Shown here: piece after piece, positions 2 to 62,548 of the stretch
How the letters are laid out: each line of letters begins with the position of its first letter
Position numbering within the stretch: the first letter of the stretch is position 1
Source: Candidatus Latescibacterota bacterium
Lineage (GTDB): Bacteria; Latescibacterota; UBA2968; GCA-2709665
Direction: 5' to 3'
NCBI GenBank assembly: GCA_965203805.1
Contig: OZ241917.1
Coordinates: 4,224,001-4,288,000, forward strand
Length of the DNA stretch: 64,000 nt
The notes under the pieces: generated by a model
Told to the model about the DNA's origin: nothing
The model's input: the letters and a program-made list of their open reading frames with translations, nothing else
The model's database searches: none
Made by a program: the position numbers and the translations under genes

Positions 2-3000
2 ACGATAGCAAGTGTGCTTTCGGGCGATCTCGATGACGCCTCGCGCCATTACGCCAGCGCGTTTGACTGGATACGTCACGATATCGAAAGCGCAAGAGAC
101 AATGATCACAGCCGGCAAAGGCCGGAGCAGATCGACCACGCCTCGATTCCATTCTTTCGCGTGGCACAGGGAAGACAACGCCGAGCCATCCGCTTTATGG
201 GAATCTGGTATCCTTGGTACGCGTTTGAGATAAGTGGACAATTCTTCGAACTGTGCCGTCAAGCCATCAGGCGTGATCCTGAGTTTCGTCCACAGCTTGA
301 CGCATTCCTCGACGCATTGACTAGCCAGATTGGCCTTCTCGCAGGTGCGATGTCGTTTGTGGACTTAAGCGACGAAAGAAGCCAGGAATTGCTAGGAAAA
401 CTGGCAAAGGTGTGCAAACGCACTACAAATGTCAAGACGGCTGGGGGATACACTGAGGAGCGACGGCACGAGCTACCGGACGGGTTGCGGAAAGCTGCCG
501 CTATAGCGGCTTCATTTGGAATGGCCGAGGAGGCTCTTGGGATTTCGCTTCGGGCACCACACGCGCGTCCCCGGGTCTGGTCGATGGTAGACTTGTACTC
601 GGATGGGGAGCTTCTCCCGTTCTTGTTCAGAGTCGCACTTCGCGCGGCTGTGACGAGCACCGAAGTGCATCAGCGTGACATTCTCCCGAGCGAGTTGTAC
701 GGACTGGCGAAAGGGATCGATAAATCGTTGCCTCGTGACCAGTTTCAGAAAAAGCTGAAAGAAAAGCTCCAAAAGCAAATCGATCGGGATAGAGACCTTG
801 CAGAAAACGAGCGCCAGATTCGTGAAGGCGTTGAACGCGATATTGATCGCTTTCTCAATCACCGACTAGGCCCCCTACTCGAACTCACCCGTGCTTTTGC
901 GTCGTTTCTTGGCAGCCGTGTAGGGCAAGCGGACAGGCCGTTTACAGAGCTTGTTAACGTATGGGCGCGAGTCCGAACCAATCCGGAGGGTTATCACATT
1001 GAGTCGCAAATCAGTCGCTTCTTTCACCTGCTTGGAACCCGTGTGGTCATATTTGCCCTGTGGGCGCGCAGAGACATCAGGGCAGCCTCCGCAAGATTCT
1101 TACTGAAACACCTGCATCAGTCGAATAACCTGCCCCCGTCAACGCTGATTGAAATCATTGCAACCGTCGCGAGAAGGCCTCGGTTCGGTGTAATCTCTGG
1201 AGAGCAGGCGGTTAGAGCAAGGTCTCTGATCGAACGCGAGGACGACGTCAACACCCGCACGGTGTTATTCGCGAAACTGGCGCGAGCTATTCTACCAGTA
1301 AGCGCAGACGAAGCAGCTGAGTATTTTCGGACAGGGCTCGAACAGCTGGATGCGATTGGCTCTGGTGACTATGACTTCACGAACGCGCTTCTCCAATTCG
1401 CGTCTGCCATAAAGGGCGATGAACTCTCGGAAGAGAGTTTTCATACTTTCACTAATATATGTGAACTCAATACACTCTATAATGAGGAGGAGAAGTTTAC
1501 GTGGGCAACCTTCGGAACAGCTATGTCGAAGGTCTCAGGCCCGCGCGGACTTACAAAGCTCTCACGTTGGCATGATCGAGGCAAGGTTAGCCTGAAGTAC
1601 ACGTTGCTTCCATACCTAGCCGCTCTCTTGAGGGACGGGAAGATCGACCCAGAAGATGCCGTAGCGCTCAATTGTCTGGCAGATCCTGCTGAGCTTTGGG
1701 CATGCAATACTGAGACATTTGCGAACATTATACATAAGGGACGTTTTTCCAACGCCGAAATTCTCATTACGGAGTCTGTACAGCAATACGAGGCGAACAA
1801 TCCACTCTTTCCTTCGGCAAACATACTGAAAACGCTGGCTGCTATCGCAGGCGATGTCTTCGGCAAACGGCACGCGAAGACAAAGAACCTAATGAGAACA
1901 CATCGACGAATCAGCGAGGTCAATCACGATCTAAACCGACAGCAAGATTACAATCCAGCAGGCGGTGTACGGCTTGGAGAATTGGCCGACGATGCCCAGC
2001 AGAAATCAATCCAGGCGCGAGATACCGCCGCGAAAACTAACCCTCTAGACGAAGATTCCCTACGGAACGCTATCAGTCAGATGAAGGACGCGAGATTCTC
2101 TGGCGAGCTTAAGTCGGAATTCTTCCGTAGGCTTCGCGCAAGAGTGCGCCTTGCGGACCGCTCAAAATACATATGGCTTGTAGCGTGTCTTGAAGAGCTG
2201 GATACGTACGCCAAATTCGAGGAACTGGCGGAGTGCAAGAGTGCTTGGTCAGCCAGTTCCGCCGGTTTGAACTCCCTCTACAAGACTCTCGCGACACCCA
2301 TACTCGATATTCATGCCGAAGACTTGCTGGATTTCGGAAGACTTTCCACCTATCAACTCAAGAATGTATCGGACCTTACAGGCGTGCCCGTGGGGGCGCT
2401 GGCCATCGAACTTGCTAACGTCTTTTCAATGGCGGATTGGACCGTACCCTCATCAGCATGGTTGGGACTTGCCTCCATTATTTGTAAGGATGCAGACAAG
2501 GGACAAGGTCAGAAGGCCCTGAGAAATCTATTCAATAGCGCTCCCGCGAGAATGACGTCGACGGTTGTGGACGGGCCATGGAAACCGGGCCTGTATCCAG
2601 CCAGCGAAGTGAGCGCTATCGCCTCGGGTCTTGTTTGGCAATTGCTCGGATCTCCTCGTGCAACCGACCGTTGGCGTGCTGCGCACAGCGTTCGATGCTT
2701 CGCAAGGATGGGTCGCTGGGAAGTCATTGATGCGCTCGCGCACAAGCTGCCGTCGATGGATTCGAAGGGGTACGGTGCGCCGGAACTGCCGTTCTATTAC
2801 CTTCATGCGCGACTGTGGTTGCTTATATCGCTTGCTAGGATTGCCCTTGATTTCCCTGAGGAGATAGCGAATTATCGAGAGAAACTTATGTGTTTCGCTC
2901 TTGACGACTCTCACCCCCACGTCGTAATTCGACACTTCGCCAAGGAAGCCATTCTTGCTTGTGATAGAGCCGGTGCATTATCACTTTCTCAGAAACAGCG

Positions 3001-4258
3001 CGAACAGCTGCGAACTGTGAATGATTCTCCGTTTCCGCACCGAATCAATCGAGGGAGGCGTTACGACAGGGCTGATTTTTATAAACGACATTCAGACGAT
3101 GGTTCAAATCCAGATGACAGGTTCTTTGTAGATTGGGACTTTGACAAGTATGATGTCCACGACCTTGCCAATGTCTTCGCTCAACAGGGCTGGGCCGTAA
3201 GGAACCTCATCTCGGACGAAGTTCACAGGCTCGATCCTTCCGTGACTAGCATGTACGACGATGCAGACCGCGAGATTCCCTTTCGCCGTCCCTCAGCTGG
3301 ATTGACTTCAAGTATTGATGTTTATGGACAATACCTCGCATGGCATGCGCTTGGTTTCGTTTCAGCATACCTGCTTTCACAGCATCCCATCGCAGAAGAC
3401 CAGGAACATTGCGAGCGCTGGACAAGTTGGCTTTCAAACAAACTACTAACACGTAGCGATGGCCTATGGCTTTCAGATGGAATGGACCGTCAACCGTTAA
3501 GTGTAAAAGTCAATTTACTTAATAAAGGAGAAGAAGGACTCGTGCTGACTGGCGACCGGAAAAAGCTAACAGGCTTGGTAGGGATCGATGGTCCGACAGT
3601 CGGTCGTGAACTTGTCGTCGAAGGCGATTGGAAATCGCACGACGGGATCGACGTTCAAATCAGCTCTGCTTTAGTAAATCTAGGCAAGGGTAGAAAGCTC
3701 GCCAAAGAACTCCTTGAGAAAAACGACGCGTTTTCCATGTGGCTCCCAACGTTAAATTACGATGGCGAAGAGAACGAGCCCTTCCTTACCGAAGAGAACG
3801 AGTATATGCCTTGGATCGTTAGTCCGACATACGAAGGAGAAAAGCTTGATCGATATGATCCCCTAAGCGTTATTACTGTCGAACGACGTCCCCGCTTTGC
3901 GGCAAGCGTCGCCGAGAAATTCTCACTTAAGCCTGGCGATCACTTCGGACGAAAATGGCTGTTGCCAAGAAGAAAGATTGCTGCGACAACAGATTCGTGG
4001 GGCTTCGAGATACCCTATGAGGACGGCGGCCAGAGGTGTGCGAGGCTTGTTTGCAGGACGGAGTTTCTCAGCAGAGTGCTGGAATGGAAAAAGGCCGATC
4101 TCATATTAATGATCAAACTCAGCCGATATGTTGAAGGAGACCGGGTCAATCGGAAAAGTCGATTTTCTAAAACTGTCGCCGTTTTGCGGGTTAGAAAGGA
4201 TCTGACGTTCGAGTATTTCGCCGGTCCCGTGAATCAAGTAAAACAGTCGGGTTTCTGA
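2..4258 (+). CDS. Avs3a-like (AVAST type 3) STAND anti-phage protein, C-terminal helical/TPR sensor region; 5'-truncated by the window edge
   Basis: Frame is open from nt 2. The C-terminal blocks LLGSPRATDRWRAAHSV, LPFYYLHARLWLLISLAR, PHVVIRHFA, YLAWHAL, LTRSDGLWLSD, ISSALV and LDRYDP match my recollection of the Avs3a C-terminus. The NTPase and effector domains lie outside the window. Confidence 0.75.
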   Translation, partial: TIASVLSGDLDDASRHYASAFDWIRHDIESARDNDHSRQRPEQIDHASIPFFRVAQGRQRRAIRFMGIWYPWYAFEISGQFFELCRQAIRRDPEFRPQLDAFLDALTSQIGLLAGAMSFVDLSDERSQELLGKLAKVCKRTTNVKTAGGYTEERRHELPDGLRKAAAIAASFGMAEEALGISLRAPHARPRVWSMVDLYSDGELLPFLFRVALRAAVTSTEVHQRDILPSELYGLAKGIDKSLPRDQFQKKLKEKLQKQIDRDRDLAENERQIREGVERDIDRFLNHRLGPLLELTRAFASFLGSRVGQADRPFTELVNVWARVRTNPEGYHIESQISRFFHLLGTRVVIFALWARRDIRAASARFLLKHLHQSNNLPPSTLIEIIATVARRPRFGVISGEQAVRARSLIEREDDVNTRTVLFAKLARAILPVSADEAAEYFRTGLEQLDAIGSGDYDFTNALLQFASAIKGDELSEESFHTFTNICELNTLYNEEEKFTWATFGTAMSKVSGPRGLTKLSRWHDRGKVSLKYTLLPYLAALLRDGKIDPEDAVALNCLADPAELWACNTETFANIIHKGRFSNAEILITESVQQYEANNPLFPSANILKTLAAIAGDVFGKRHAKTKNLMRTHRRISEVNHDLNRQQDYNPAGGVRLGELADDAQQKSIQARDTAAKTNPLDEDSLRNAISQMKDARFSGELKSEFFRRLRARVRLADRSKYIWLVACLEELDTYAKFEELAECKSAWSASSAGLNSLYKTLATPILDIHAEDLLDFGRLSTYQLKNVSDLTGVPVGALAIELANVFSMADWTVPSSAWLGLASIICKDADKGQGQKALRNLFNSAPARMTSTVVDGPWKPGLYPASEVSAIASGLVWQLLGSPRATDRWRAAHSVRCFARMGRWEVIDALAHKLPSMDSKGYGAPELPFYYLHARLWLLISLARIALDFPEEIANYREKLMCFALDDSHPHVVIRHFAKEAILACDRAGALSLSQKQREQLRTVNDSPFPHRINRGRRYDRADFYKRHSDDGSNPDDRFFVDWDFDKYDVHDLANVFAQQGWAVRNLISDEVHRLDPSVTSMYDDADREIPFRRPSAGLTSSIDVYGQYLAWHALGFVSAYLLSQHPIAEDQEHCERWTSWLSNKLLTRSDGLWLSDGMDRQPLSVKVNLLNKGEEGLVLTGDRKKLTGLVGIDGPTVGRELVVEGDWKSHDGIDVQISSALVNLGKGRKLAKELLEKNDAFSMWLPTLNYDGEENEPFLTEENEYMPWIVSPTYEGEKLDRYDPLSVITVERRPRFAASVAEKFSLKPGDHFGRKWLLPRRKIAATTDSWGFEIPYEDGGQRCARLVCRTEFLSRVLEWKKADLILMIKLSRYVEGDRVNRKSRFSKTVAVLRVRKDLTFEYFAGPVNQVKQSGF

Positions 4259-5186: not shown

Positions 5187-6194
5187 TCAGCGTCCACATA
5201 GAATTCGTTCGACTTGATTCTCGTCGAGAAAATCTAATGCGTTACGTAATACGGAGTCGCACTGTCCTGGTGGCTGAGCCGGTAATAGTTCGAACCACGG
5301 TTCTGCATAGTCGGCCCTGACTTGCAGTAAAGGAGACCTGAGCAAGGGTAATGCCGGATGACGACCAGATAACATATGGGAGGGGGTCACGTCATAAGCA
5401 AAGTGCAGCATAGGAGTCTTGTTTGCTCCATTGTACAAAACAGTCGGCCTGGCTGACACACAGACATCCGAGTTACCTGCGGCTATAGCAATCATGTAGC
5501 CTAATGTGCCGTGAACCAGTCTTGCCGCCTCTTCGCCTGGAGATTCAGTTTCCTCCAACAAAAAGCTGATCGTATCGCTGGTTTCGGCATTCTCCATTTC
5601 CATTGAAGCAGTCAAGAACTGCCGCATTTGTCGCCTATCGCTAGCCCCATAGAGCTTGGACTCCACCGTGAGCATCAGAAGCCACGGTTGCCATGCATCT
5701 TGGCGATCAGCATCAAAGAGGCGCCTAAGGGCATGGGCTCTGTTTTGGACACTTAAGTTACCGCGTTCATATGGCAGAAATTTGCCATAGTAGTCAAGGT
5801 AAATGACGTCAAAATCCCATATGTACCCCGCGTCGGTCCGGAAAGTGGTTGAGACAAATTCCGAAGGTGGCTTCCCGCTCTTGTTTCTCAATATGATCTT
5901 GTCGACGTCACCCAAATGGGCTCGATGGCGTATGCTACTAAACTGAGTCCTTAGAACATGCTTAACAGACTGAAACCTTTCACTGCTGAATTCTACGGCG
6001 GCTATGTACTCGCAGAGGCGGCCCCAGCAGCGCAAGTCCAACGCTTCCTCACCAGGCAAGCCGAAATATCTGATTTTACCCTTCTTTCGACGTACTGCTG
6101 CCTCGACCAACGGTTGATCATACTTTTCTCTAACTACGTTTTTTTCTGCACTGGAATAGTAGCTCTTTCCTTGACGACTGGGGCTTCTTCCCAT
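5187..6194 (-). CDS. Divergent class I SAM-methyltransferase-fold protein
   Basis: Rossmann-like motif order YFGLPG, IAAVE, GDV, FDVIYLDYYG; GGGAGG RBS in the 8-nt gap after the upstream ATPase stop. Confidence 0.6.
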   Translation of the reverse strand: MGRSPSRQGKSYYSSAEKNVVREKYDQPLVEAAVRRKKGKIRYFGLPGEEALDLRCWGRLCEYIAAVEFSSERFQSVKHVLRTQFSSIRHRAHLGDVDKIILRNKSGKPPSEFVSTTFRTDAGYIWDFDVIYLDYYGKFLPYERGNLSVQNRAHALRRLFDADRQDAWQPWLLMLTVESKLYGASDRRQMRQFLTASMEMENAETSDTISFLLEETESPGEEAARLVHGTLGYMIAIAAGNSDVCVSARPTVLYNGANKTPMLHFAYDVTPSHMLSGRHPALPLLRSPLLQVRADYAEPWFELLPAQPPGQCDSVLRNALDFLDENQVERILCGR

Positions 6195-6202
6195 TGCCTC
6201 CC

Positions 6203-8065
6203 TTAGCTCCCTATTTCCTCGGCAATCGCTTCAACAATAGCTCGTAGCACTGTTTCATATCCCTCACCTCTCCCACCCATTCCAATCACCAGACCTCGGT
6301 CGATTGCTTTTACAAGGGCATCCTCAGGCGTGCTTTCTAGCGAAACACCATGCTGTGCCAACGCCTCTCCCAGTGACACTGGTGCTAAGGGTGACCAACC
6401 CAGTAGGGTTCTCAACTCCCTACGAGAGGACTCCAATTCGGGACGAAGGTCGACACCTGTTGCCTTAAGTTCGTCAAGAACCCCTATGGCTCTCGTAACT
6501 GACCTAGTATTGATCGAGGATACCAAAGCCTCTGCCGCTTTCTTATATTGAACATCGCGAGTCTCTTCGGCTATCCGCAGTGCAATGCTGAGTGCGTTCT
6601 TTAATAACATCTCTTGAGGAGGAGGTTGGGTAACTTTGCGTCGTTTTCGTTCTGTACTCCTTTGTGCGGCCCTAGCGACACCTCCCAATTGGCTGATAGC
6701 CGACTGAAGTCTGCTGATTACGTCGTCCAAGAGACCCTGTTGTACGTCATCAAATTGGACTCGCGGCCGTCCGCGTGGCTTTCGCTTATGGGTCGCGATC
6801 TGTTGATGCACGTTCTCAAGTTCTTTGCGATAGTTTTCACTGTTCCTATAGACCTCGTAGCTGTCTGAATTCGGTGCATCCTTTTGTTTCCGTAGCTGTT
6901 CGATGGTGGTGTCGATTCCCTCAAGTAGCCGGTCTGCCCTAATCATCGCCTGCATAGCGCGAGCCTTGCGACTGAGAGGATAAAAGAAATCTTCTGCTTG
7001 CTTTGCGAAAAGTTGCCTGGCTGGGCTGGATTCTAGGTCATTCCGCGCAGCATTAGGAAAGATCTGATCAGTTACCAATATGTGGACTTCCCCCGTATAG
7101 TGATGGTATAGAGTTCCTCCCCCAACGGCGGGCCAAAGCCCTTTGAGCGCAAGCCTATCCCCTAAAGTGAACCCCTTTACCTTTAATAGGAAGCCACTTA
7201 CTTCTGAACCCTCATGCATGGGTAGCTGCTTTCCATTAGCAGACAGTGCGTACCACACGAAGGCCAATGCTGTGCCGTCCGGTGCCTTTATCCAATTAGA
7301 TTCCGGGCTGTATACTCCTGTCGCGACTGGAGGAAATACCTCTACGTCACTCTCGTCAGCGATTCGTAGAGTAATCCGAACTGGATTTAGCCTAACGTTG
7401 TCTTCAAGCCATCCATTGACTTTTTCACCATAGCCATCTTCTGAGAAAGCCACAGGAATCGTTCTTAGAAGATAATCGTTGACCTCTGCCGCATTGTTTA
7501 ATTGCGCTCTGTATTCGTCGCCCAATCCATCTAACTCCACCACAGTAAAGTGCTCGCCGACATCGCCATAGTAAGGTTCAACGAACAATTCACTATACTG
7601 ATACATTAGGTCTGGAAGTCCAACACCCTGACGGGCATCAGAAGCTTTGTCAGCTTCAAGCAGGCGGCGCATTTCGCCAAATTGAAAGGTCCAACCAACG
7701 AGGTTTTCCATCCCGACTTTCTTGCTTGTGATCGTCATCTCTTCACATATTCCGAACGCCGAATAGATGCCAATGCCGCGATACCCGACCATTTCTCTGG
7801 GGCTTTTTTCAGACATTCCAAATCGCCGAGCGACCCGGATCCCCTCCTGATTCATGCCGTAGCCATCATCTCTAATCACAGCTTGGGAGCCATCAACCGT
7901 AATGAGAATGTGACCGGCTTCAGCATCCACCCCGTTTTGGACATATTCCCTGAGTGCATCTTTCGCGTCGGAGTACAGGCCTCGTGAAAGGATGTCCAAT
8001 AGCTCCCCGCCTACCTCCCAACTCTCTAGCTGAACTCGCCGCGTTTGGCGTTCACTTTGATTCAT
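6203..8065 (-). CDS. GHKL (Hsp90/MORC-like) ATPase with S5-like domain, helical C-terminus and AT-hook
   Basis: REYVQNGVDA (ExxxN), DDGYGM, GYRGIG, YTGEVHI..PNAARNDLE; KRKPRGRPR. Confidence 0.85.
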   Translation of the reverse strand: MNQSERQTRRVQLESWEVGGELLDILSRGLYSDAKDALREYVQNGVDAEAGHILITVDGSQAVIRDDGYGMNQEGIRVARRFGMSEKSPREMVGYRGIGIYSAFGICEEMTITSKKVGMENLVGWTFQFGEMRRLLEADKASDARQGVGLPDLMYQYSELFVEPYYGDVGEHFTVVELDGLGDEYRAQLNNAAEVNDYLLRTIPVAFSEDGYGEKVNGWLEDNVRLNPVRITLRIADESDVEVFPPVATGVYSPESNWIKAPDGTALAFVWYALSANGKQLPMHEGSEVSGFLLKVKGFTLGDRLALKGLWPAVGGGTLYHHYTGEVHILVTDQIFPNAARNDLESSPARQLFAKQAEDFFYPLSRKARAMQAMIRADRLLEGIDTTIEQLRKQKDAPNSDSYEVYRNSENYRKELENVHQQIATHKRKPRGRPRVQFDDVQQGLLDDVISRLQSAISQLGGVARAAQRSTERKRRKVTQPPPQEMLLKNALSIALRIAEETRDVQYKKAAEALVSSINTRSVTRAIGVLDELKATGVDLRPELESSRRELRTLLGWSPLAPVSLGEALAQHGVSLESTPEDALVKAIDRGLVIGMGGRGEGYETVLRAIVEAIAEEIGS

Positions 8066-8451: not shown

Positions 8452-10020
8452 TCAGACGGACATCGACTCCATCGCGTTGTACACTTTTCGGAACGCCTTC
8501 GCTACCCGGCCCTCGCCGCCGAGATTAAAGCTCGCATTGCGAACTCTTGCATTCAATCGCCACATTAGTCCCTCAATGGAGTTGTAGTCTTGCACTGATA
8601 ACGATTTGTACTTGCGGCGATTGTAATCGAGGAAGGGGAGTAGCTTTCCATTCAAGTGATGTAGATCAAAGCCTTTTTCTTCGATATAGGGACGGTATTG
8701 CTCGAACAATGGCGTGCTTGGCACCGGAGTAAACAGCATTGGAATCACGGAGCCGACACGGCTAGAGGCAAATGTGACTGTGTCGTATACCGCTTGCAGG
8801 TCTTCGTCTGGCAGGCCGAAGAGAATGAAGCAGTTGATGTCCTGGCAACGCGACTTGAATCCGGCCTTCTCAGCATTGTTCAACGCATAGAAAAACTTGT
8901 CCATGTTTGTGTGAGTCCGTTGCCACGATTTGGCCATGTTCGCGTTGACAGTTTCTAGCGGTAAATACAACCTCTTAAAGCCTGCGTCACGCATCAGTTG
9001 GACGGTGTCTTCGTGCAGCAGGCGCACTTCTATACCCTCTGGTGCGTGTAGTTTGATCCCTTTCAAATCGCGATCGTTGCAAATGAGTCGGCAAAGCTGC
9101 TTGAAATTCTCTCTGCCGAGCAGCAGGTTGTCTTCGTAAAAACAGAATTCGCGAATTCCTTGCTCAAACCGCCGCTTGATCTCATCGTACGCGACTTCGG
9201 ATTCCCGAACCCAGATCTTTCGGCCTTCGTTCAATACGTTTGCCGAACAGTAAGAACATTTAAAGGGGCAGCCTCGACTCGTCGTCATGATGAGGTAATC
9301 GGGCAATCTCTCGCCTTCTTCACCATCTTCGACGTCCCCTGCACCGTCTCTGTCGTACAACTCGATGGCAAGTGGAAGTGGATTCGCGTCCGGTATTGTC
9401 GCGGACACTACGATATCTCGCTTCTTCTGTTCGGGGTCAAGTGGATCAAGCTCACGACCCATCACGTGCATTGGATCATTCAACCCGAGGTTCTGCATGG
9501 CGTGGTCGGGAATAAGTGTGGGATAGATTCCACCAACACGGAAAACGGCCCTTGGAAACACCTGCCGACAGACTTCAATTACGTCACGGGTACTTTCCCA
9601 CCAGTACGTCATGATCGACGATATCCATATTTCATCTGGTTCTGGAAATACTACCTCGTCGAAAGGCGATTCATTCGCACTTCGTGCACGCGCTTTTATC
9701 GCTTCGAGCCGTTTTCGCAGTTCCTCGAGCGACATGCCGAAAACGTATTCGATCTTTTCGTCGGGCTGCGATTCGTAATTCGTCCATTTATCCGGGGTGA
9801 AGGGTTCGTCTGCGGAACAGAGTTTTCGTACACAGCGCTTTCGCTTTGGCACGGTTCGCCGCTTGTTGGCCTCCATGCAGTCAATCAGCTTCAGCATGTA
9901 GCCCTTGCCCTGAAGCCACGACGCAACGCGCAACAGCCCATAGGGCATACTCCAGTTTGCCCAATACTGTACGTCGTAGACAGGCGGGCTAATCAATAAC
10001 GCTGAGGGGGAACGCTTCAA
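8452..10020 (-). CDS. Cobalamin-binding radical SAM enzyme (class B methylase-like)
   Basis: N-terminal B12-binding domain (LLISPP..PYGLL..IWISSIMTYWW..VGGIYPT) plus SRGCPFKCSYC (CxxxCxxC, nt 9247-9270). Start placed at TTG 10020 behind a GGGAGGT RBS; the ORF track starts at 10077. Confidence 0.9.
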   Translation of the reverse strand: MKRSPSALLISPPVYDVQYWANWSMPYGLLRVASWLQGKGYMLKLIDCMEANKRRTVPKRKRCVRKLCSADEPFTPDKWTNYESQPDEKIEYVFGMSLEELRKRLEAIKARARSANESPFDEVVFPEPDEIWISSIMTYWWESTRDVIEVCRQVFPRAVFRVGGIYPTLIPDHAMQNLGLNDPMHVMGRELDPLDPEQKKRDIVVSATIPDANPLPLAIELYDRDGAGDVEDGEEGERLPDYLIMTTSRGCPFKCSYCSANVLNEGRKIWVRESEVAYDEIKRRFEQGIREFCFYEDNLLLGRENFKQLCRLICNDRDLKGIKLHAPEGIEVRLLHEDTVQLMRDAGFKRLYLPLETVNANMAKSWQRTHTNMDKFFYALNNAEKAGFKSRCQDINCFILFGLPDEDLQAVYDTVTFASSRVGSVIPMLFTPVPSTPLFEQYRPYIEEKGFDLHHLNGKLLPFLDYNRRKYKSLSVQDYNSIEGLMWRLNARVRNASFNLGGEGRVAKAFRKVYNAMESMSV

Positions 10021-11344
10021 GATCCCAGACCTCCCTACGTAAACTGTTTCGCAGCAACTCGGCACCCATACTTCCATTCAAAAAATCGAATGACCGGCTG
10101 CGGACTTTCTCGTTGAGGAACGCCGCCATCCTGTAAAGGTCATGGTACTCGTATCGGGTGATTCCGTTATGCTCGGCGAACGGAAATCTGTGAGGGGACA
10201 GATCAGCGTACGAAAGATCGTCAAGATACTCCTTATGTTGTTCGTACAGTTCTGTTCCCGGCGTTGCGGTGTATGGCTTGAGGATGACACTTCCAAACGT
10301 CCTGAGAACGGTGAAACAACGATGGACGATCCCTTCCAGGGTTTCGCCAGGGCGCCCAATCCATACGAATCCGCAAGTCCTGTTTCCGTCCGCAAGATCA
10401 ATCCCCGCTTCCAGTAAGTGGGCTCTACACTGCTTGTATACGACCTCGTCTAGATCCAATTCCTCCTCGGACTGCTCAAAGTGAAGCTCCGCGAACGTAC
10501 GATCTGCGAACATCCTCGCTAAGTCTGGTGTGACCCGTTCGGGATGCAGCCCTGACACCGCATGAAACTGCAGATGTGGGTGGAGTCCTTTCGTACTCTC
10601 GACGATCTCTCGAAGTAGCTTGCCCTCGTCGCGACAAATGTCGTCCTCGGCATCAAACACGGCAACGCGAAATATTCCAAGATCGATTGCTTCCCTAATC
10701 GTGGGAATGGCCGTAGCTGGATTGAGAGTAATCGAAACGAACGACGGTTTTTCGCCTTTGTAGAGCTTCAGTGATGATCCATTGTCGGCATGCCTAAGTG
10801 GCGTCCTGACGAACAAGTCGGCATCACAAAAGTCTACTGCGTTGTCCAGCATAAATCGTGGGTAATTGCCCAGTACCGCCAGTTTCGCGTCTGGAAGCCA
10901 AAGGCGTAGCTTCGTGCATAATTGGTGAATGCTGGCGAACCAATAGCTGCACAGCGAAGTAATCCACACTTGAGTTGGCTCGTTTCGCTCGCCTTCAGCA
11001 CGTCGCTCGACGACCCAATCCTTGAGTGCGTCGAATGGTTTTCCGAATCTCCACATTGGATATTTGTAAGCAAATTGACCATTGCCGACTTGCTTGTATC
11101 TCTCTCGCCCGTTCAACGCTTTTTTTTGTACGCGGCCTTTGTTGTTCGGCACCATGAAGTCAAACAGCTCAACCCCACATCCCTTGCTGTTGTTGAGATA
11201 CGCCCCAATTCCGAGTAGGTCCAATGGTTGATTCCACTGCAGCCAGCTATAGCGTGTCTCGAACACTGGCGGGTTTACCAGCAGTATCCTGTCGCGCTCT
11301 TCGACTTGGTTCAGTAGTATTTGTCCTGTGACAGAATTAGTCAT
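9989..11344 (-). CDS. B12-radical-SAM paralogue lacking the CxxxCxxC loop (probable pseudo-enzyme or partner subunit)
   Basis: Colinear with 8452..10020 along its whole length (LLVNPP, QPLDLL, VWITSLCSYW, IGRPGETL, GSVILKPYTATPGTELY, LNEKVRSRSFDF), but about 25 aa containing the Fe-S motif are absent. Overlaps both neighbours. Confidence 0.8.
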   Translation of the reverse strand: MTNSVTGQILLNQVEERDRILLVNPPVFETRYSWLQWNQPLDLLGIGAYLNNSKGCGVELFDFMVPNNKGRVQKKALNGRERYKQVGNGQFAYKYPMWRFGKPFDALKDWVVERRAEGERNEPTQVWITSLCSYWFASIHQLCTKLRLWLPDAKLAVLGNYPRFMLDNAVDFCDADLFVRTPLRHADNGSSLKLYKGEKPSFVSITLNPATAIPTIREAIDLGIFRVAVFDAEDDICRDEGKLLREIVESTKGLHPHLQFHAVSGLHPERVTPDLARMFADRTFAELHFEQSEEELDLDEVVYKQCRAHLLEAGIDLADGNRTCGFVWIGRPGETLEGIVHRCFTVLRTFGSVILKPYTATPGTELYEQHKEYLDDLSYADLSPHRFPFAEHNGITRYEYHDLYRMAAFLNEKVRSRSFDFLNGSMGAELLRNSLRREVWDLEAFPLSVID

Positions 11345-13328
11345 TGGATTGCATCGTGAAAGACAATAGTGTCACGGCCATTTCCATCATCTGTTCGGCG
11401 TCGCCTTCCGCCGCTGTGCGTGCCAATACCAATGCCAGGGCGGTGCGTAGGAATCCCCGCTCATCCATCTGGGACTTTGCAGCATGGCCCCAATTAACGT
11501 GAATTCTGTCCCGCTTGAAGTCTATTTCAGCGATGGGTTGGCTCGCCGTGCCCTTCTTGTGTACGACGTCGAACCGCCGTTTGAACAACATAATACCGTT
11601 GTCCCATTCAGGTCGCGATACGTCGATTGTCACCTGTTTTTTTTCATAGTCTATTGTTGCTGCTTCTGACTGACGACTTGCCTGATTTACGGCCATACCA
11701 GCCACTTTGTTGGGAACGTCAAATCCTGCCGGCTTCGCAGATGCTAACCCGTTCGGGCGCGGGCTGTTCGACTTGAGCATATCCCGTATCGCGTTGGCTT
11801 GTTGTCCGCCTTCGGTCATAAGGTGAGTTATCCCCGCCGACACATCATCCATCGCACGCCGGATGTACGCCGCGCGACTCAACGTGCTATCGATTGACGA
11901 CCTCGCCTGGCTTCGTTTTAGGACTGCATCAATGGTCCTGCCGAGATATCCGCCAACCCTTTCACCCTCTCCCCGGAAATACTTACGCAAGGTGAGAAAA
12001 TCACCACTCTCCTCGTAAAAGCCCTCGCGACCAGGATTGATCGCATCTACCGCGTCCAAGCCGCTCAGCACATTTATCTCACCCGTGATCTGGCTCAATG
12101 CGGCCTTGTGGGCTCCAGTAAGAAGGAATTCGGCGCCGAGAAAGGTCGGATCGCCGATTGCGACACCTTGGACACGTATAGAAACGCCTCGATACTCGGC
12201 CGGGAACACAACGCTTTCGTAGCCGAGAAGGAATCCTTTCGCGATAAGACCACCCTCGTTTATGTCTACTGCCGTGATCATATCCTTGTATAGCGTCGCT
12301 GCGTCCGGTTCGAACGGATAGAGTGGACGAGCCAACTCTCTCTCCGAATTGCCGTGCCGGAGAGTCACTTTTTCCAGTGTGGGTGGCGATGCATCCTCCA
12401 AGAGGGCTTCAAGATGTTCAGCTTGATCTGGCGCCGTCGTGTACCCGATTGGTGTACATCGTGACAAATGCCACGCGACCTGTTCAAAGCCGCTGCGACT
12501 GGCAACATTTCGAACGAAGCCCTTCCGGCGCCCGGCTCGGAGTTCGCGCTTTACAAACGACTTGAGTCCCTCTATTGCGACCGTTGTCCCTCCCGTCGAT
12601 TCCCGCTGCAGCTCTTGAATTTCGATCAACGCGAAATCGGACAGTTTTTCAAGGTCGGCAGAATCCGCGAGCTTGAGCAAGCGATCAAAGTCCAGAGTCG
12701 CTCGAAAACCCAACCTAGTGCAGTCGATGTCAAATTCAATGTCAACCTCACCGAAATCCTTCTTGAAGTCGAGACTACCAGTCTTCGCGTTCAACTCGTA
12801 GTCGGTTGCATCAACCTTCAGCCGTTTTCCAGATTGGATCACCTCGAAACTGCACAACCTATTGAGTAACTGCGGGTCAATGGGTACGCCCAGAGCGCTG
12901 ACGAGATCTATGGACGGGTATGCCTTTACGATCGAATGTGTCCGTTTGAACTGACGAGGACTGCTTGAAGTGATGATCATCCGGTGGCAGTAGCGTGCGA
13001 GCGCGAGGAATCCTATCCCTTTGTTCCCGATGCGGCTTCGATTTTTCTTTGGCGTCCTTTCCCCTGACCATTTACGACTGCTGCCGCCGATTCGAGTGAA
13101 GTCGCATCTGAACTCAAACGGACTCATCCCGTTGCCGTCATCCGATATCGTGGCAGACGTGAAGTCGTCAGCAAACTCGATCGAAACTTCTGTCGCGTCG
13201 GCATCGTAAGCGTTACTGACGAGTTCCTTGAACGCTTTGACGAACGGCTTATAGACGCCGGACAGCTCTCGAAGAATCGAAGGATCAACGCCTCCAACGC
13301 TCATTCCATGTTTCGATGCTTCTCTCAC
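11337..13328 (-). CDS. MORC-like GHKL ATPase (HATPase_c_3) with S5-like domain
   Basis: KELVSNAYDADA, DDGNGM, RIGNKGIG, GTTV; ITGEINV..INPGREGF; 8-nt overlap with the next gene. Confidence 0.85.
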   Translation of the reverse strand: MREASKHGMSVGGVDPSILRELSGVYKPFVKAFKELVSNAYDADATEVSIEFADDFTSATISDDGNGMSPFEFRCDFTRIGGSSRKWSGERTPKKNRSRIGNKGIGFLALARYCHRMIITSSSPRQFKRTHSIVKAYPSIDLVSALGVPIDPQLLNRLCSFEVIQSGKRLKVDATDYELNAKTGSLDFKKDFGEVDIEFDIDCTRLGFRATLDFDRLLKLADSADLEKLSDFALIEIQELQRESTGGTTVAIEGLKSFVKRELRAGRRKGFVRNVASRSGFEQVAWHLSRCTPIGYTTAPDQAEHLEALLEDASPPTLEKVTLRHGNSERELARPLYPFEPDAATLYKDMITAVDINEGGLIAKGFLLGYESVVFPAEYRGVSIRVQGVAIGDPTFLGAEFLLTGAHKAALSQITGEINVLSGLDAVDAINPGREGFYEESGDFLTLRKYFRGEGERVGGYLGRTIDAVLKRSQARSSIDSTLSRAAYIRRAMDDVSAGITHLMTEGGQQANAIRDMLKSNSPRPNGLASAKPAGFDVPNKVAGMAVNQASRQSEAATIDYEKKQVTIDVSRPEWDNGIMLFKRRFDVVHKKGTASQPIAEIDFKRDRIHVNWGHAAKSQMDERGFLRTALALVLARTAAEGDAEQMMEMAVTLLSFTMQSND

Positions 13329-49147: not shown

Positions 49148-50344
49148 ATGGATGGCAAGAGGCTGTTTCGAACAATTCGTCTGGACAACATATTGTCCTA
49201 CGGTTCCTGGGACGGCGAGTTTCAACTTGAGCCGTTAAATGTCCTGATCGGGCCGAATGCATCGGGAAAGTCAAACCTCATAGAAGTAATATCTCTACTC
49301 GCTGCCGCGCCTGGTGGGGATCTTCAGGCACCGATTCGCGAGGGAGGAGGCGTTATCGAGTGGCTATGGAAGGGAGCCACTCGCCTGGGCACGGCAATGA
49401 TCGACGTAACCGTCGAATTTCCGGATAACCGACCGCTCAGATACCGGCTGAGGTTCACTGAGACTGCGTCACGGTTCGAACTCGTGGGTGAGGCAATCGG
49501 GAATGATAGGCCTAAAAAAAAGAACGAAGATCCATTTCCTTTCTATCGAAATCAGGGGGGACGGGCGAGGCTCAGCGTGTTGTCTCCGGATGAGTCTCGG
49601 TCCAATCAACCCCTTACGCAGGAAGAGTTAAGTCAGGAACAGTCGATTCTCTCCCAGCGTCGCGATCCCAACACCTATCCAGAATTAACCTATCTGGCTC
49701 ACGCATTCGAACGTATACGCTTTTATCGAGATTGCAACTTCGGGCGCTCGAGTCCGCCCCGACTACCGCAACAAGCCGACATGCGGCAGGACATTGTGCT
49801 GGAGGACGCCTCGAATATTGGATTGGTTCTGAACAGCTTGCTAAATCAACCACCCGTTAAACGCCAGATCATGGATCGCTTACGGGCTTTTCACCAGTCG
49901 ATCGAGGACATTCTCTGCGTCTTTCACAGTAATACTGTCCAGATATTCTTTCACGAAGAAGGTTTGCATCACTCGATACCCGCCACACGGCTATCCGACG
50001 GGAGCTTGCGCTACCTTTGCCTCCTGGTACTACTGTGTGATCCCAATCCGCCGCCGGTTGTCTGCATCGAGGAACCGGAGATCGGCCTGCACCCGGACGT
50101 AATCCCGGAGTTGGCGGGGCTATTGGTTGAGGCGTCTTCCCGCTGCCAGATATTCGTGACAACGCACTCCGATATTCTCATTGATGCACTCACCGACACC
50201 CCGGAAGCCGTGATTGTCTGTGAGAAGTCAGAGGGAGCGACCAAACTTCGACGGCTGGACGCCTCGGAACTCGAGCTATGGCTTAAGGATTACCGACTCG
50301 GAGAGCTATGGATAAATGGGGAAATCGGAGGCAACCGGTGGTGA
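49148..50344 (+). CDS. ABC-type (AAA_21) ATPase
   Basis: GPNASGKSN, LSDGS, IEEPE, TTHS. Confidence 0.9.
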   Translation: MDGKRLFRTIRLDNILSYGSWDGEFQLEPLNVLIGPNASGKSNLIEVISLLAAAPGGDLQAPIREGGGVIEWLWKGATRLGTAMIDVTVEFPDNRPLRYRLRFTETASRFELVGEAIGNDRPKKKNEDPFPFYRNQGGRARLSVLSPDESRSNQPLTQEELSQEQSILSQRRDPNTYPELTYLAHAFERIRFYRDCNFGRSSPPRLPQQADMRQDIVLEDASNIGLVLNSLLNQPPVKRQIMDRLRAFHQSIEDILCVFHSNTVQIFFHEEGLHHSIPATRLSDGSLRYLCLLVLLCDPNPPPVVCIEEPEIGLHPDVIPELAGLLVEASSRCQIFVTTHSDILIDALTDTPEAVIVCEKSEGATKLRRLDASELELWLKDYRLGELWINGEIGGNRW

Positions 50345-50961
50345 AAATAAAGGTGTACGTGGAAGGCGGTGGCTATAGAAAGACCACAAGCAGCGCTTGT
50401 CGCAGGGGCTTTATTAGATTCATTGAGAGATCCGGATTGCAGGGAGAGATGCCGAAAATTGTTGCCTCCGGCAGTCGTACGAACACGTTCAGACGTTTTG
50501 CAAAGAGAAGCAAAGACGCTGCAAATGAAGAAGAATACGCTCTGCTCTTATTGGACGCTGAGGGGCCGCTCAGGAAACCCCAGCCGTGGCAACATCTCAA
50601 GGAATGTGACGGTTGGAATCCTCCCGAAGACACGAAGGAATATCAATGCCATTTGATGGTGCAAGCGATGGAATCATGGTTTCTTGCAGATCGTGCATCG
50701 CTTATGGAATTCTACGGTCAGGGTTTTCTGTCAAACGCGCTACCGCAGAATCCGCAGATTGAGGAAGTCCCCAAAGGCGATGTCATCAATGGAATACGCG
50801 GCGCTACCAGAAGTACCACAAAAGGACGATATGACAAGGGGTCCCATAGTTTCGAGATCCTCGCGAAGATAGATCCAGGAAAGGTTATGGCTGCGTCGGA
50901 CCACGCAAGACGATTTATCAACGTGCTGGTGGGGCTTGCGGAAGGCAGGGAAGTATTTTGA
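50341..50961 (+). CDS. DUF4276 family (TOPRIM-like) partner protein
   Basis: VYVEGGG, LLDAE, MVQAMESWFLAD, YDKG; overlaps the ATPase stop. Confidence 0.8.
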   Translation: MKIKVYVEGGGYRKTTSSACRRGFIRFIERSGLQGEMPKIVASGSRTNTFRRFAKRSKDAANEEEYALLLLDAEGPLRKPQPWQHLKECDGWNPPEDTKEYQCHLMVQAMESWFLADRASLMEFYGQGFLSNALPQNPQIEEVPKGDVINGIRGATRSTTKGRYDKGSHSFEILAKIDPGKVMAASDHARRFINVLVGLAEGREVF

Positions 50962-51051
50962 CGGTCACTTATGTCCAACAACGCCACTTGTTGGCCAATA
51001 TCGAGAGAAAGTGGCAAACAAACTCATTTGTCGGCCATTGATGACCGACAA
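50958..51051 (+). repeat. 94-bp triple-hairpin repeat, copy 2
   Basis: Direct repeat of copy 1, 2010 bp downstream. Confidence 0.8.
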
Positions 51052-51163
51052 CGACCGTTTTATACCGAGCCAGCGGACATGGTACCCTGCCTTTTCCACA
51101 AAAGCGCCGCGATTTCACCCCGGGTTGCGGCCAACACACGCAACGAAAGCTTGGAGGCAATTA

Positions 51164-52276
51164 ATGGCGCCAGTACAATACCATGCCGGCCGGTTCCCTC
51201 CCGATAATCTCGACTGGCCAGCGCTTATTCCACTCATTGGTCCTGCTGCGACGGCTGTGGCACGTTACGACGGTACTCTCGCTGCGACTCCTAACGCCGA
51301 TATTCTGCTCGCGCCACTCACCACGCAGGAAGCTGTCCTCTCCTCTCGCATCGAGGGTACTCAGGCCACCATGGGCGAGGTGCTGCAGTTCGAGGCCGGT
51401 CGGGAGCCAGATTCTCCGACACGCCGTGAAGATATCCACGAAGTGATCAACTATCGCATCGCCATGCGGCGGGCGGAAGAAATGCTGGACAAGATACCTC
51501 TTTCCCTTCGGGTGGTCCGAGAAGCCCATAGAATGTTGCTTGCCGGGGTGAGGGGAGAGGGTCAGTCGCCGGGCGATTTTCGTCGCGTTCCCAACTGGAT
51601 CGGTCCGCCTGGATGCTCGATCGAACAAGCCACGTTTGTGCCGATAGGCGCAGACATGCTTCCCGAGGCCATGAGTTCTTGGGAACGATATATCCACTGC
51701 GAAGCGCCAGATCAACTAGTACAACTGGCGATTCTGCATGCCGAATTCGAAGCCCTTCACCCGTTTCTGGATGGCAACGGACGCCTCGGGCGCATGCTGG
51801 TGCCGCTGTTCTTGTGGCAGTGTGGCCTCATCAGAGCTCCCATGTTTTACATCAGCGCTTACTTCGAAGCCCACCGAGACGCGTACTATGACAGCCTGCT
51901 TGCCGTGTCCCGCGACAACGACTGGACGGGATGGTGCGGGTTTTTTCTTGAGGCGGTTCGAGTGCAAGCCCAGGACAACCTTACAAAGGCGCAGGGCATC
52001 ATTGACCTGTATGAGGAAATGAAGCGGCGTGTCGCCGATCTAACCCGCTCCCGCTACGCAGTGCATGCATTGGACTGGATTTTTGAACGTCCGATTTTCC
52101 GAAGTTCTGACTTTGCGGCTTCCGCAGGCTTTACTCATCGCACCGCGCGCCGGATTCTGGATGTCTTGTGCGAAGGGGATGTACTGAAGGTGTTTCATCA
52201 GGGCAGGGGCCGCAAGGCAGCAGTCCTTGCGTTTCCCGAACTCATAAACGTTGCAGAAGGCAGAGACGTATTTTGA
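51164..52276 (+). CDS. Fic family protein (class II, with inhibitory motif)
   Basis: HPFLDGNGRLGR, SSRIEG; GGAGG RBS. Confidence 0.9.
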   Translation: MAPVQYHAGRFPPDNLDWPALIPLIGPAATAVARYDGTLAATPNADILLAPLTTQEAVLSSRIEGTQATMGEVLQFEAGREPDSPTRREDIHEVINYRIAMRRAEEMLDKIPLSLRVVREAHRMLLAGVRGEGQSPGDFRRVPNWIGPPGCSIEQATFVPIGADMLPEAMSSWERYIHCEAPDQLVQLAILHAEFEALHPFLDGNGRLGRMLVPLFLWQCGLIRAPMFYISAYFEAHRDAYYDSLLAVSRDNDWTGWCGFFLEAVRVQAQDNLTKAQGIIDLYEEMKRRVADLTRSRYAVHALDWIFERPIFRSSDFAASAGFTHRTARRILDVLCEGDVLKVFHQGRGRKAAVLAFPELINVAEGRDVF

Positions 52277-52366
52277 CGGTCACTTATGTCCCACAACGCC
52301 ATTTGTTGGCCAATATCGAAATAAAGTGGCCAACAAACTCATTTGTCGGTCATAGATGTCCGACAA
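52273..52366 (+). repeat. 94-bp triple-hairpin repeat, copy 3
   Basis: ttgacggtcacttatgtcccacaa..ttgttggcca..tggccaacaa..ttgtcggtca..tgtccgacaa. Confidence 0.8.
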
Positions 52367-52424
52367 CGAATTGATTTCTCGGCGCGTCGCCATGGGTTGG
52401 CAATCGGGACGGACGAAGAGTGCG

Positions 52425-52518
52425 TTGACGGTCACTTTTGTCCCACAAACTCAGTTGTCAGACAAAAATGGTGATAAGTGACCAACAAAATACGTTGTCG
52501 GCCATCGATGACCGGCAA
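52425..52518 (+). repeat. 94-bp triple-hairpin repeat, copy 4
   Basis: Same length and decamer layout. Confidence 0.75.
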
Positions 52519-52654
52519 CGGCCGTCTATTCATCAGGAGTTGATTTGTCCTACACAGCAGCAGGCGTCCGTGATGTCCCGTGTGATTAAATCGACACACA
52601 AACTCCGTCAACATCCGTCAATCCGGATTCACAGAATAGAGAGAACACTCCCGA

Positions 52655-55453: not shown

Positions 55454-55635
55454 GAGCTATACAGGTCGTTAACGCCGAGCTTTCTTTATTCACGGTAGTT
55501 CGAAAACCCTGATGGATCACGTCTCAAAGGAGGTGGTTAAAAAGTGACAAAAGGGGTACACAGATAAAATCAATATATCCGTAGTCAAAATCAAAATTTC
55601 AGAACTGGCTCTCGCGTAAATAGGACGTACATGCG

Positions 55636-56535
55636 ATGACATACTCCGTGGTACAATACGCAAATACGGGAAGTGGAAAAATCACTGTGGGTGAATCTGG
55701 ACTTTGCAGATATTGCCAAAAAGAAAAACCAGAAGTTTCATTCTCAAACAGAGCCCATGCGATACCTCAGTTTATTGGCAATAACGAGATATTTTCTAAA
55801 GATGAATGCAACTCCTGCAATAAGTTCTTCGGAGCCGGGTACGATGATGATTTATCCAAATATCTCGGGGGAAGACGTACCGTTTCGCAAATGCGAGGGA
55901 GGACTGGTATTCCAAGTTACAAGACACATACGGAACTGTCGAGAATTGATGTAAATAAGTCCGGCATGAGAATGTTGGGTACCGAAGGTGACGACACAAT
56001 TCACTTAAACGAGGAATCAAACACTGTGGGCATCAAAATACGAAAGCAACCATACTCACCGTTGGGTGTGTATAAGTCTTTCCTCAAGATGGCCATCGCC
56101 TTGGCTCCTCGAACTCTCTTGTCGCCGCTTGACGTCACCAGGCAGTTTCTGATGCGAAAAGATAATATTAGATGCCCATGCTTTAGGCCCTTTTTGATAG
56201 AGACCTTCATCCCTGGACCATTGAACAACGAGTTATTCACGATGCTCTTGAAAAGATCAGAAGAGGTGGACATTCCATCACTGATGTTTCTTCTTTATGT
56301 ATCCAACTACTGCTTTCAAATAGTAGTGCCCTGCCCTGAATTGGATCAAAAGCTCGCTGGCCAGGACGTAAGGGTTCCCAGAATTACCCATCCGCTTGAA
56401 CATATGAATCATCCCTATGGCTCCTCGATATCACGAAAAGTTGATCTTTCGCAATTGGAGAAGGTTCGGGATCAATACGAAATCATTACGATGCACTATG
56501 ACCGTATTGTGCCCGAATGTACCGATACACAATGA
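55636..56535 (+). CDS. HNH endonuclease-domain protein
   Basis: CRYC..AHAIP..IGN..ECNSCN. Confidence 0.75.
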   Translation: MTYSVVQYANTGSGKITVGESGLCRYCQKEKPEVSFSNRAHAIPQFIGNNEIFSKDECNSCNKFFGAGYDDDLSKYLGGRRTVSQMRGRTGIPSYKTHTELSRIDVNKSGMRMLGTEGDDTIHLNEESNTVGIKIRKQPYSPLGVYKSFLKMAIALAPRTLLSPLDVTRQFLMRKDNIRCPCFRPFLIETFIPGPLNNELFTMLLKRSEEVDIPSLMFLLYVSNYCFQIVVPCPELDQKLAGQDVRVPRITHPLEHMNHPYGSSISRKVDLSQLEKVRDQYEIITMHYDRIVPECTDTQ

Positions 56536-56722
56536 GATAATTTCAACTCAGCTTTTATTGTTATAAATTCGGCGATGGGGGAGGGCATGAAATGCCAGAG
56601 AGAATGAATATATGAGACGATGGTAGGTGGAAATCGATGGTGATGGACGGGCGTAGACGGACGTCCAAGACCGAACCGAAAGCACAGGATTCGATGTAGG
56701 ATGCGAAACAATCGAGAACGAG

Positions 56723-57844: not shown

Positions 57845-58007
57845 GTATCCAGCAGGGTAAGGAGGTACAATGGTGAGCGCATTGTTGCAGTAGAACATGC
57901 AACGATTGGCTGAAATCCTCGGTGCTCGAACCTCATGCACCGAGTATATTAGATACCGCGCTGTGGTTTGGCGATGCAAAAACAACAACCGGAACTGGGA
58001 CGATCGC

Positions 58008-58508
58008 ATGACCGCTGCGCTGATGACAGATTCCGACCAGAAAGAAGCGCTGTCTTTTGTCTATGTACGCGCGGTCGCGGCGCGGGCAGGTTATGTCATA
58101 GGCCGCTCTGAACTGGACCGGGACAGCATAGACTTGAGGATTGAATCGGGTGAGCCGATGCGCCCTGCGCTCGATTTGCAATTGAAAGCAACGGCAAATC
58201 TAAATGGACGGGATGACTGTTACTTTCGATTTACTTTGAATCGGAAGAACTACGACGATCTGCGCATACCAACTCAGACTCCGAGGTTGCTCGTGGTGCT
58301 AGACTTGCCGAGAAGAAGGGACCAGTGGGTGACGATCACCGAAGATAGACTGGTGCTTAGGCGCCGTGCCTATTGGTTGAGTCTGGTCGGTCGTCCGCAA
58401 ACGGACAACCAAGTGTCGGTGACGGTTCAGATACCGCGAAGAAATGTGTTTGACGTCAATGGTCTGCGAACGCTCATGGATCAGTCAAGAGAAGGGAGAA
58501 TCCAATGA
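58008..58508 (+). CDS. DUF4365 family PD-(D/E)xK nuclease-like protein
   Basis: DRDSID..LQLKAT..YDDLR..AYWLSL. Confidence 0.8.
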   Translation: MTAALMTDSDQKEALSFVYVRAVAARAGYVIGRSELDRDSIDLRIESGEPMRPALDLQLKATANLNGRDDCYFRFTLNRKNYDDLRIPTQTPRLLVVLDLPRRRDQWVTITEDRLVLRRRAYWLSLVGRPQTDNQVSVTVQIPRRNVFDVNGLRTLMDQSREGRIQ

Positions 58509-61398: not shown

Positions 61399-61435
61399 TC
61401 TCGATGCCTGTCCTGTGCCGGAGGATCGTGCGCAT

Positions 61436-62416: not shown

Positions 62417-62548
62417 TGCATCGGGATGACACACGATTTTTATAGACACCCGTATGATAACGCTCCGGATGTGAAATGGTCATTGAAACCAAACGATCTA
62501 AGGGGATATTGAGCATTCACAAGATGGTTAATTAAGGCAGAAAGACGG

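Follow-up and report, generated by a model that had tools for sequence, protein, structure and literature searches.

The 64,000-nucleotide (nt) window analysed here, positions 4,224,001 to 4,288,000 of contig OZ241917.1 from a Candidatus Latescibacterota bacterium (GCA_965203805.1), contains an operon in the order GHKL1, PSEUDO, RSAM, GHKL2 and ORF5, in which PSEUDO is a paralogue of RSAM, a radical S-adenosylmethionine (SAM) enzyme, and lacks the cysteine loop of the iron–sulfur (Fe-S) cluster. We read PSEUDO as an ancient, maintained, cluster-less paralogue, likely the non-catalytic subunit of a heterodimer that it forms with RSAM and that is predicted to work on DNA or nucleotides as part of a system against invaders; taken as a whole, this reading has in our judgement an even chance of being correct. 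Its first element is far firmer, and the homologues indicate that PSEUDO is almost certainly a maintained non-radical protein. The features on which the argument turns, in coordinates of the window, are as follows.

9989..11344, minus strand: PSEUDO, a 451-amino-acid (aa) protein that is paralogous to a B12-type radical SAM enzyme but cluster-less.
10673..10747, minus strand: PSEUDO aa 200-224, where barrel strand 1 runs straight into helix 1.
8452..10020, minus strand: RSAM, an intact B12-type radical SAM enzyme of 522 aa from a TTG start, with CxxxCxxC at nt 9247-9270.
10018..10036, minus strand: the RSAM start, with the Shine-Dalgarno sequence AGGGAGG (10030-10036) and TTG 10020, within the REVWxL codons of PSEUDO.

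The PSEUDO open reading frame spans 451 aa with 0 internal stops and encodes a Rossmann domain, a partial TIM barrel and a helical C-terminus, with no match in Pfam, PADLOC or NCBIfam. Residues 200-224 read PSFVSITLNPATAIPTIREAIDLGI (nt ~10673-10747), the equivalent region of RSAM reads PDYLIMTTSRGCPFKCSYCSANVLNEGRKIWVRESEVAYDEIKRRFEQGI, and the 25-aa CxxxCxxC loop is absent from PSEUDO at ~nt 10723/10724. An end-to-end BLASTP alignment of the two proteins shows 21% identity (E 1e-16) and leaves a gap of 25 residues across CxxxCxxC, and profile–profile alignment of PSEUDO against RSAM families (hhalign) gives a probability of 100% (E 3e-86). A preliminary description of this DNA had proposed loss of the Fe-S loop without frameshift or stop, together with a retained C-terminus; the open frame and the gap bear out the first, and the C-terminal match between the two proteins (LNEKVRSRSFDF / LNARVRNASFNL) is real. 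The site of the loss had been placed correctly, although its extent is ~10673-10747 rather than ~10690-10750. To call the copy otherwise intact was an overstatement: PSEUDO is 71 aa shorter than the 522-aa RSAM and has also lost SAM-contacting positions.

RSAM combines CxxxCxxC, with C251, C255 and C258 invariant in 93 sequences, with a Pfam Radical_SAM match above the cut-off (E 9e-17, 62 bits; cut-off 29.5), and is a radical SAM enzyme by both. Its Pfam B12-binding match falls under the cut-off of 32.1 bits (E 0.0014, 18.9 bits; PSEUDO has no match), and weak NCBIfam matches to the PhpK, HpnJ and BchE models lie far under theirs. PSEUDO has lost both features of an active radical SAM enzyme, the three-Cys cluster site and the SAM-binding motifs. 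Among 39 motif-less proteins of full length, of which 5 were taken from the close set and 34 from 50%-cluster representatives, E328 of the partner is kept in 0 and E356 in 5; we take these residues to belong to the SAM-binding motifs, and the names GGE-equivalent, ribose Glu and GxIxGxxE are likewise our assumption. Of such motifs, only the Gly of GxxxGxP is kept (38/39). By descent, as its homologous partial TIM barrel attests, PSEUDO is a class-B-type radical SAM protein.

The predicted fold agrees. An AlphaFold2 model of PSEUDO (predicted local distance difference test score 87.7) shows a Rossmann domain plus a partial barrel and matches AprD4 (Z 18.7, root-mean-square deviation 3.7, 349 residues aligned), MgmA (17.2), TsrM (16.0) and CysS (15.5). 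The RSAM model finds its matches in the same set, led by AprD4 (Z 23.2) and including TsrM (Z 20.7), and both models have an N-terminal five-stranded Rossmann domain. A PDB sequence search with the pseudo profile returned UvrB as the sole match (E 0.095), which we regard as chance. The residues kept in the Rossmann domain of the pseudo-clade are W135 (38/39), G159 (39/39), Y161 (36/39) and a His at position 168 (35/39), and the Trp of the W135 loop, after Rossmann strand 3, is present in 22/22 partners as well. In OxsB, TsrM and TokK the loop after this strand bears the residue under the cobalt, according to the accessible part of one account (PMC13331322), and cobalamin use by the pair is plausible from the shared loop.

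Loss of the motif is ancient and of single origin, as judged from alignments and trees. A protein search returned 213 homologues, and neither CxxxCxxC nor a looser variant occurs in any of 121 close sequences (120 of the 213 listed, plus PSEUDO itself). A profile search of 50%-cluster representatives found full-length motif-less proteins down to ~23% identity, and among the 150 representatives listed all motif-bearing proteins score higher to RSAM than to PSEUDO. Motif absence in the 39 is by selection; the independent result is a tree with the loop columns removed, in which all 39 motif-less rows lie on one side of one branch (Shimodaira–Hasegawa-like approximate likelihood ratio test 100). 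A second tree, built from 17 pairs together with 3 lone enzymes and 16 further relatives, places its 17 motif-less rows in one clade (support 100/97). The loop region is 6-29 aa long in the 39 motif-less proteins versus 30-49 in 22 partners, and one motif-less protein still has a single Cys there. Because of these graded lengths and this residual Cys, the alignment indicates that Cys loss is general in the family and that the full deletion came later, in one sub-clade; a clean loss, as first described, is therefore right for the sub-clade of PSEUDO and wrong across the 39.

The ratio of nonsynonymous to synonymous substitution rates (dN/dS) for PSEUDO is 0.15-0.23 (~0.2) in 9 of the 10 pairs listed, a saturated pair being left out; RSAM gives 0.06-0.11 and GHKL1 0.11-0.31. 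Selection on PSEUDO, by this estimate, is purifying yet relaxed. The earlier proposal of a maintained non-catalytic paralogue, as opposed to a decaying duplicate, gains support from this ratio and from the 121 sequences, none of which keeps the CxxxCxxC that a recent lesion would have left in close homologues. There is also no conserved alternative Cys set: the best Cys column reaches 20/39, and some members have one Cys only. We considered six Cys of the close clade (C56, C132, C143, C173, C237 and position 264) as an alternative cluster site and rejected them on the wider alignment; position 264 is Ser in PSEUDO.

Where the PSEUDO gene is whole, it occurs with an intact partner in every testable locus. 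Our set of 65 loci (19 from genomes and 46 from metagenomes, several of them near-duplicates) has RSAM directly after PSEUDO in 48 of the 53 with room to test, and all 5 others carry a broken-off pseudo-gene. GHKL1 precedes PSEUDO in 53/57 loci by script, and 3 of the 4 misses do show GHKL1 matches. A sample of 400 genomes from the phylum of G045 yielded four new, distant pairs, 4/4 adjacent and in the same order, and samples from the phyla of G041, G043, G044 and G042 (400, 300, 300 and 300 genomes, respectively) yielded none, with only 4-5 candidates scored per genome in these samples. The nearest relatives of the locus are in Candidatus Latescibacterota assemblies; the pair is present in 3/14 same-genus genomes and 0/26 other relatives. 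The preliminary description had asked whether the copies are always paired, and this is so from pseudo-copy to enzyme and not in reverse, given three lone intact enzymes (below).

Several observations suggest that the two proteins act together. The GHKL1 gene overlaps the start of PSEUDO by 8 nt, and RSAM most likely starts, on the evidence of the start-site layout, at TTG 10020, 32 nt within PSEUDO and after a GAGG Shine-Dalgarno sequence, so that the coupling on both sides noted earlier stands. The GAGG-TTG layout lies 21 nt ahead of the first strand motif in 26 of the 32 loci listed, the window included, and at 18 nt in 2 more; the 4 distant loci differ. Partners form a clade of their own in the second tree (100/99), the partner tree repeats the main splits of the pseudo tree, and pairwise identities of pseudo-copies and partners correlate (Spearman 0.77, a value inflated by kinship in itself). 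In a single 948-aa protein, a motif-less half (aa 12-404) is fused in frame to an intact half (aa 412-936). Three residues are shared by pseudo-copies and partners and rare in more distant relatives: W34/W20 (PSEUDO/RSAM; 38/39, 19/22 and 2/32, respectively), G351/G423 (36/39, 20/22 and 2/32) and F419/F498 (38/39, 19/22 and 2/32). Packing surfaces shared in this way would be expected if a homo-oligomer became a heterodimer. The heterodimer proposed in the preliminary description thus draws indirect support from the gene overlap, the mirrored trees and the fusion, and PSEUDO probably forms a stable complex with RSAM.

The wider setting, GHKL genes and defence islands included, was absent from the preliminary description. 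The remaining features of the window are listed here.

11337..13328, minus strand: GHKL1, a GHKL (MutL/Hsp90/MORC-type) ATPase of 663 aa, directly upstream of PSEUDO in the close clade.
6203..8065, minus strand: GHKL2, a second GHKL ATPase of 620 aa, part of a variable cargo module.
5187..6194, minus strand: ORF5, 335 aa, with motifs suggestive of a Rossmann methyltransferase; relatives lie directly behind a GHKL gene.
14-4258, plus strand: an Avs3a-like STAND gene, full-length and starting upstream of the window (L080:17770-20000); PADLOC E 2e-86 and 1e-106.
49148-63759: a second defence island with a HEC-01A/B pair, an MmeI-like type IIG gene (52655-55453), PDC-M02A/B, PDC-S65 (SIR2-like), PDC-S11 and PDC-M24B.

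Both GHKL proteins match HATPase_c_3 above the cut-off, and the ATP-binding residues of GHKL1 (E28, N32, D56, G58, G60 and the G94-G99 lid) are invariant in 14 sequences. ORF5-like proteins share YxGLP..D and LDxxG motifs; ORF5 matches the PP_RS20740 family under cut-off (E 1e-10), and one relative matches Methyltransf_35 (E 7e-4). The ORF5 family has no significant PDB match (best E 1.3) and no similarity to a TcmP sequence, and for this reason methyltransferase-like is a label taken from motifs. The PADLOC library, which dates from 2023, gives no match for PSEUDO or ORF5, one 17-residue match for RSAM (E 0.005) and matches to the GHKL genes via the ATPase domain only; the operon is apparently uncatalogued as a defence system. 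The Avs3a-like gene lies ~1 kb from the operon. In the 19 genome loci, a further GHKL plus ORF5-like pair is found in 15, a HerA/DndH-like ATPase in 11, DUF5131 in 10 and Pbe/Dnd genes in 1; locus L019 adjoins DndB-, PbeA- and PbeC-like genes. Type IIG restriction endonuclease–methyltransferase genes adjoin 2/4 distant pairs and one lone enzyme. From these neighbours, a defence role acting on nucleic acid or nucleotide seems rather likely.

We propose that PSEUDO and RSAM would pack via the surfaces that both conserve and distant relatives do not (W34/W20, G351/G423 and F419/F498). The dead subunit would complete or position the substrate site, probably still with cobalamin, and the live subunit would carry out the radical chemistry, for which a cobalamin-dependent methylation of DNA at an unactivated position is the most likely reaction. 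Methylation is favoured because the layout in which a SAM-using gene comes after a GHKL gene recurs, with methyltransferase-like genes behind other GHKL genes; methylation of DNA specifically is a tentative assignment. GHKL1 would deliver the pair or activate it, as a clamp or switch driven by ATP, and, as no nuclease is recognisable, the product could be either a self mark or the weapon. The most specific version, a defence system whose core is a live/dead cobalamin-dependent radical SAM heterodimer, loaded or switched by a GHKL ATPase and either writing a new DNA mark (a methylated unactivated carbon or phosphorus) or making an antiviral nucleotide, is possible but doubtful.

A number of observations weigh against these proposals. 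The loci are not independent, near-duplicates being among them, and kin share trees. The fusion is a single sequence on one contig, its pseudo half is without the last ~35 residues, and a misassembly is possible. Three related intact enzymes (G441, G494 and G1500; the G441 genome was searched for a pseudo-copy at E 0.001) have no adjacent pseudo-copy; these lone enzymes are the sister clade of the paired ones (100/99), and the wider clade therefore does not need a dead subunit. The pseudo lineage branches outside lone and paired enzymes together, which gives no simple order from homodimer to heterodimer. Just 13/39 pseudo-copies retain the first Gly of the GG motif. Among solved structures, both models come closest to AprD4, whose domain is similar but which, in the accessible part of its account (PMC12931638), does not bind cobalamin; because of this closest fold, cobalamin use is unproven, as is the cobalamin or methyl relay first suggested. 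Regarding defence, the five-gene operon contains no nuclease recognisable with Pfam, PADLOC or NCBIfam, unlike classical MORC restriction systems; the distant pair L095 sits among sugar-transport genes, the lone enzyme L097 lies beside a xanthine dehydrogenase-like gene, and none of the 3/4 distant pairs with enough flank has an upstream GHKL gene.

The existence of lone enzymes speaks for PSEUDO being a separate helper and no stable subunit, either a cobalamin carrier or loader or a transient regulator. Conservation in the pseudo-clade is indeed centred on the Rossmann domain (W135, G159, Y161 and the H168 position), with decaying SAM sites in the barrel. A carrier, however, has no need of the whole barrel and C-terminal helices, which are kept at full length with partner-specific shared residues, and a PSEUDO–RSAM fusion exists; we rate the helper as unlikely, and prefer a stable subunit.

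The same neighbourhoods could also be read without defence, with the pair acting on a protein or small molecule, GHKL1 serving it as an Hsp90-like chaperone and mobility alone accounting for the place in an island. GHKL1 has no recognised nuclease domain and scores alike to MutL/PMS1 and Hsp90 N-terminal domains, the core operon is without a recognisable nuclease and the neighbours of L095 and L097 are metabolic. A basic hairpin in the Rossmann domain, once a candidate sign of DNA binding, was rejected as not clade-specific, the outgroup being more basic (median +6 vs +3). Against this stand DNA-directed neighbours that recur across phyla (type IIG restriction endonuclease–methyltransferase, HerA/DndH-like, SNF2, Pbe/Dnd and DUF5131-TcmP), and no peptide, polyketide synthase, transporter or other pathway gene recurs. 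This explanation appears marginally less probable than the helper, and action on DNA or nucleotides in defence is preferred to it.

PSEUDO could itself be an enzyme with non-radical chemistry, such as a TsrM-like polar methyl transfer from methylcobalamin. The non-radical TsrM is among the top fold matches, and the close clade conserves acidic residues after barrel strand 2 together with six Cys. TsrM retains its cluster, as the title of PDB 6wte states, those Cys and acidic residues are not conserved in the wider clade and a whole PSEUDO gene was never found without an intact enzyme, all of which make a catalytic PSEUDO improbable. Decay of a duplicate, or a recent lesion, has next to no probability: although the pseudo-gene is frameshifted or truncated in L016, L017, L035, L038, L040 and L043, with neighbouring genes broken too in L016 and L017, it is refuted by 0/121 sequences with the motif, single-branch trees and dN/dS ~0.2, and the 21% identity to the partner, full-length homologues to ~23% identity and a confident fold also speak against it.

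Pseudo-enzyme subunits are well known, and one pseudo-radical SAM family has already been catalogued. This family, GG-Bacteroidales pseudo_rSAM_GG (TIGR04150), is like PSEUDO a motif-less radical SAM copy; its model has no match to PSEUDO (NCBIfam, E 0.01) nor anywhere in the genome. PSEUDO differs in its Rossmann domain and its setting in defence islands, and in that neither a Cys-rich tail nor a precursor peptide is seen; the two are of independent origin. Class B enzymes (TsrM, TokK, CysS, OxsB and MgmA) and AprD4 have a Rossmann domain and a partial TIM barrel, as PSEUDO and RSAM do. RSAM resembles the class B enzymes in its CxxxCxxC, and both copies in the Trp after strand 3; PSEUDO is unlike them in having no cluster loop. 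The accessible parts of the class B accounts mention neither a dead paralogue nor a GHKL partner.

Viperins perform radical SAM chemistry on nucleotides, without a Rossmann domain or a dead partner, and match the RSAM model at only Z 10-11. OxsA/OxsB and prokaryotic viperins nonetheless offer a parallel in radical chemistry on nucleotides, as an NT5C nucleotidase and a nucleoside deoxyribosyltransferase adjoin some loci here. The fold of Dph1-Dph2 is not a TIM barrel. In that case two paralogous subunits make one radical SAM enzyme, as in the proposed pair, but both bind Fe-S clusters, according to the accessible part of the account (PMC11048331). MORC/paraMORC systems, as far as the accessible part of Iyer et al. 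2008 (PMC2292703) describes them, are sporadic mobile operons with 1-2 GHKL ATPases and methylases, as here, and carry SF2 helicases, classical DNA methylases and nucleases, none of which is in the window operon; its relatives instead carry HerA-like and methyltransferase-like genes. The word 'radical' is nowhere in the main text of that paper, whose supplement might list such neighbourhoods. The accessible parts of PMC10853773 (whose supplement might list it), PMC7159879 and the Tiamat preprint do not describe the operon. Judged from the entries listed, the open-access literature describes neither a B12-domain radical SAM enzyme with a cluster-less partner nor the GHKL operon, with subscription papers and supplements outside its scope.

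If the reading is correct, a class-B radical SAM enzyme would need a catalytically dead paralogue and would be at work in bacterial immunity. An obligate complex would mean that reconstitution of some B12-domain radical SAM enzymes requires a paralogous partner, with the lone sister clade as the natural case to compare; if our view of the context is right, immunity would involve radical reactions of DNA or nucleotides that current defence catalogues miss. The locus has a cultured carrier, Aneurinibacillus terranovensis DSM 18919 (L019), which makes the claim testable. RSAM in this carrier (L019:5470-7386) has an insertion inside the barrel and is 638 aa long, with two separate matches.

Searches of 72,556 plasmids and 50,697 phage records gave no match. 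An Atlas look-up of a PSEUDO homologue returned only B12-type radical SAM clusters (score 0.95) and no pseudo-family cluster. Low-depth contigs from four metatranscriptome runs of one study cover parts of GHKL1, PSEUDO, RSAM and flanking genes; we set them aside as expression evidence, as the flanking genes are also covered and there is no silent control.

Close relatives have the same core with different cargo (L002, L003 and L004 vs the window, L001, L005 and L009). The cargo is either a co-directional GHKL2 plus ORF5 or a convergent set of GHKL plus methyltransferase-like, HerA-like and a further CxxxCxxC gene, and L005 retains a remnant of the other type. The further CxxxCxxC protein (L003:15349-16770, also L002 and L038) has no Pfam match and lies between the HerA-like and GHKL genes. 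Between the window and L001, synonymous divergence (dS) is 0.010 for PSEUDO, 0.044 for GHKL1 and 0.39 for RSAM, and the genes downstream are 89% and 77% identical. This jump at RSAM and the downstream identities suggest a recombination point near the PSEUDO/RSAM junction, which may swap the downstream cargo.

Loci L096 and L076 have in common a HerA-like gene and a gene before it, which we take to be NurA-like. The four-part layout in these two phyla (L076:1927-10753 and L096:9503-19135) comprises this gene, the HerA-like gene, a type IIG restriction endonuclease–methyltransferase and a radical SAM gene, the last being a lone enzyme in L076, beside integrase genes, and a pair in L096. Another lone enzyme (L108:5408-10984) comes last in an operon that also contains three unannotated genes and an SNF2 helicase, with insertion sequence and prophage-like genes on its flanks. 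A recurring accessory family is found in L056:12943-14164, L057, L020:5054-7329, L011, L017, L031 and L032; an NT5C-type 5'-nucleotidase is part of its split form in L056, and in L020 a nucleoside 2-deoxyribosyltransferase adjoins the accessory gene.

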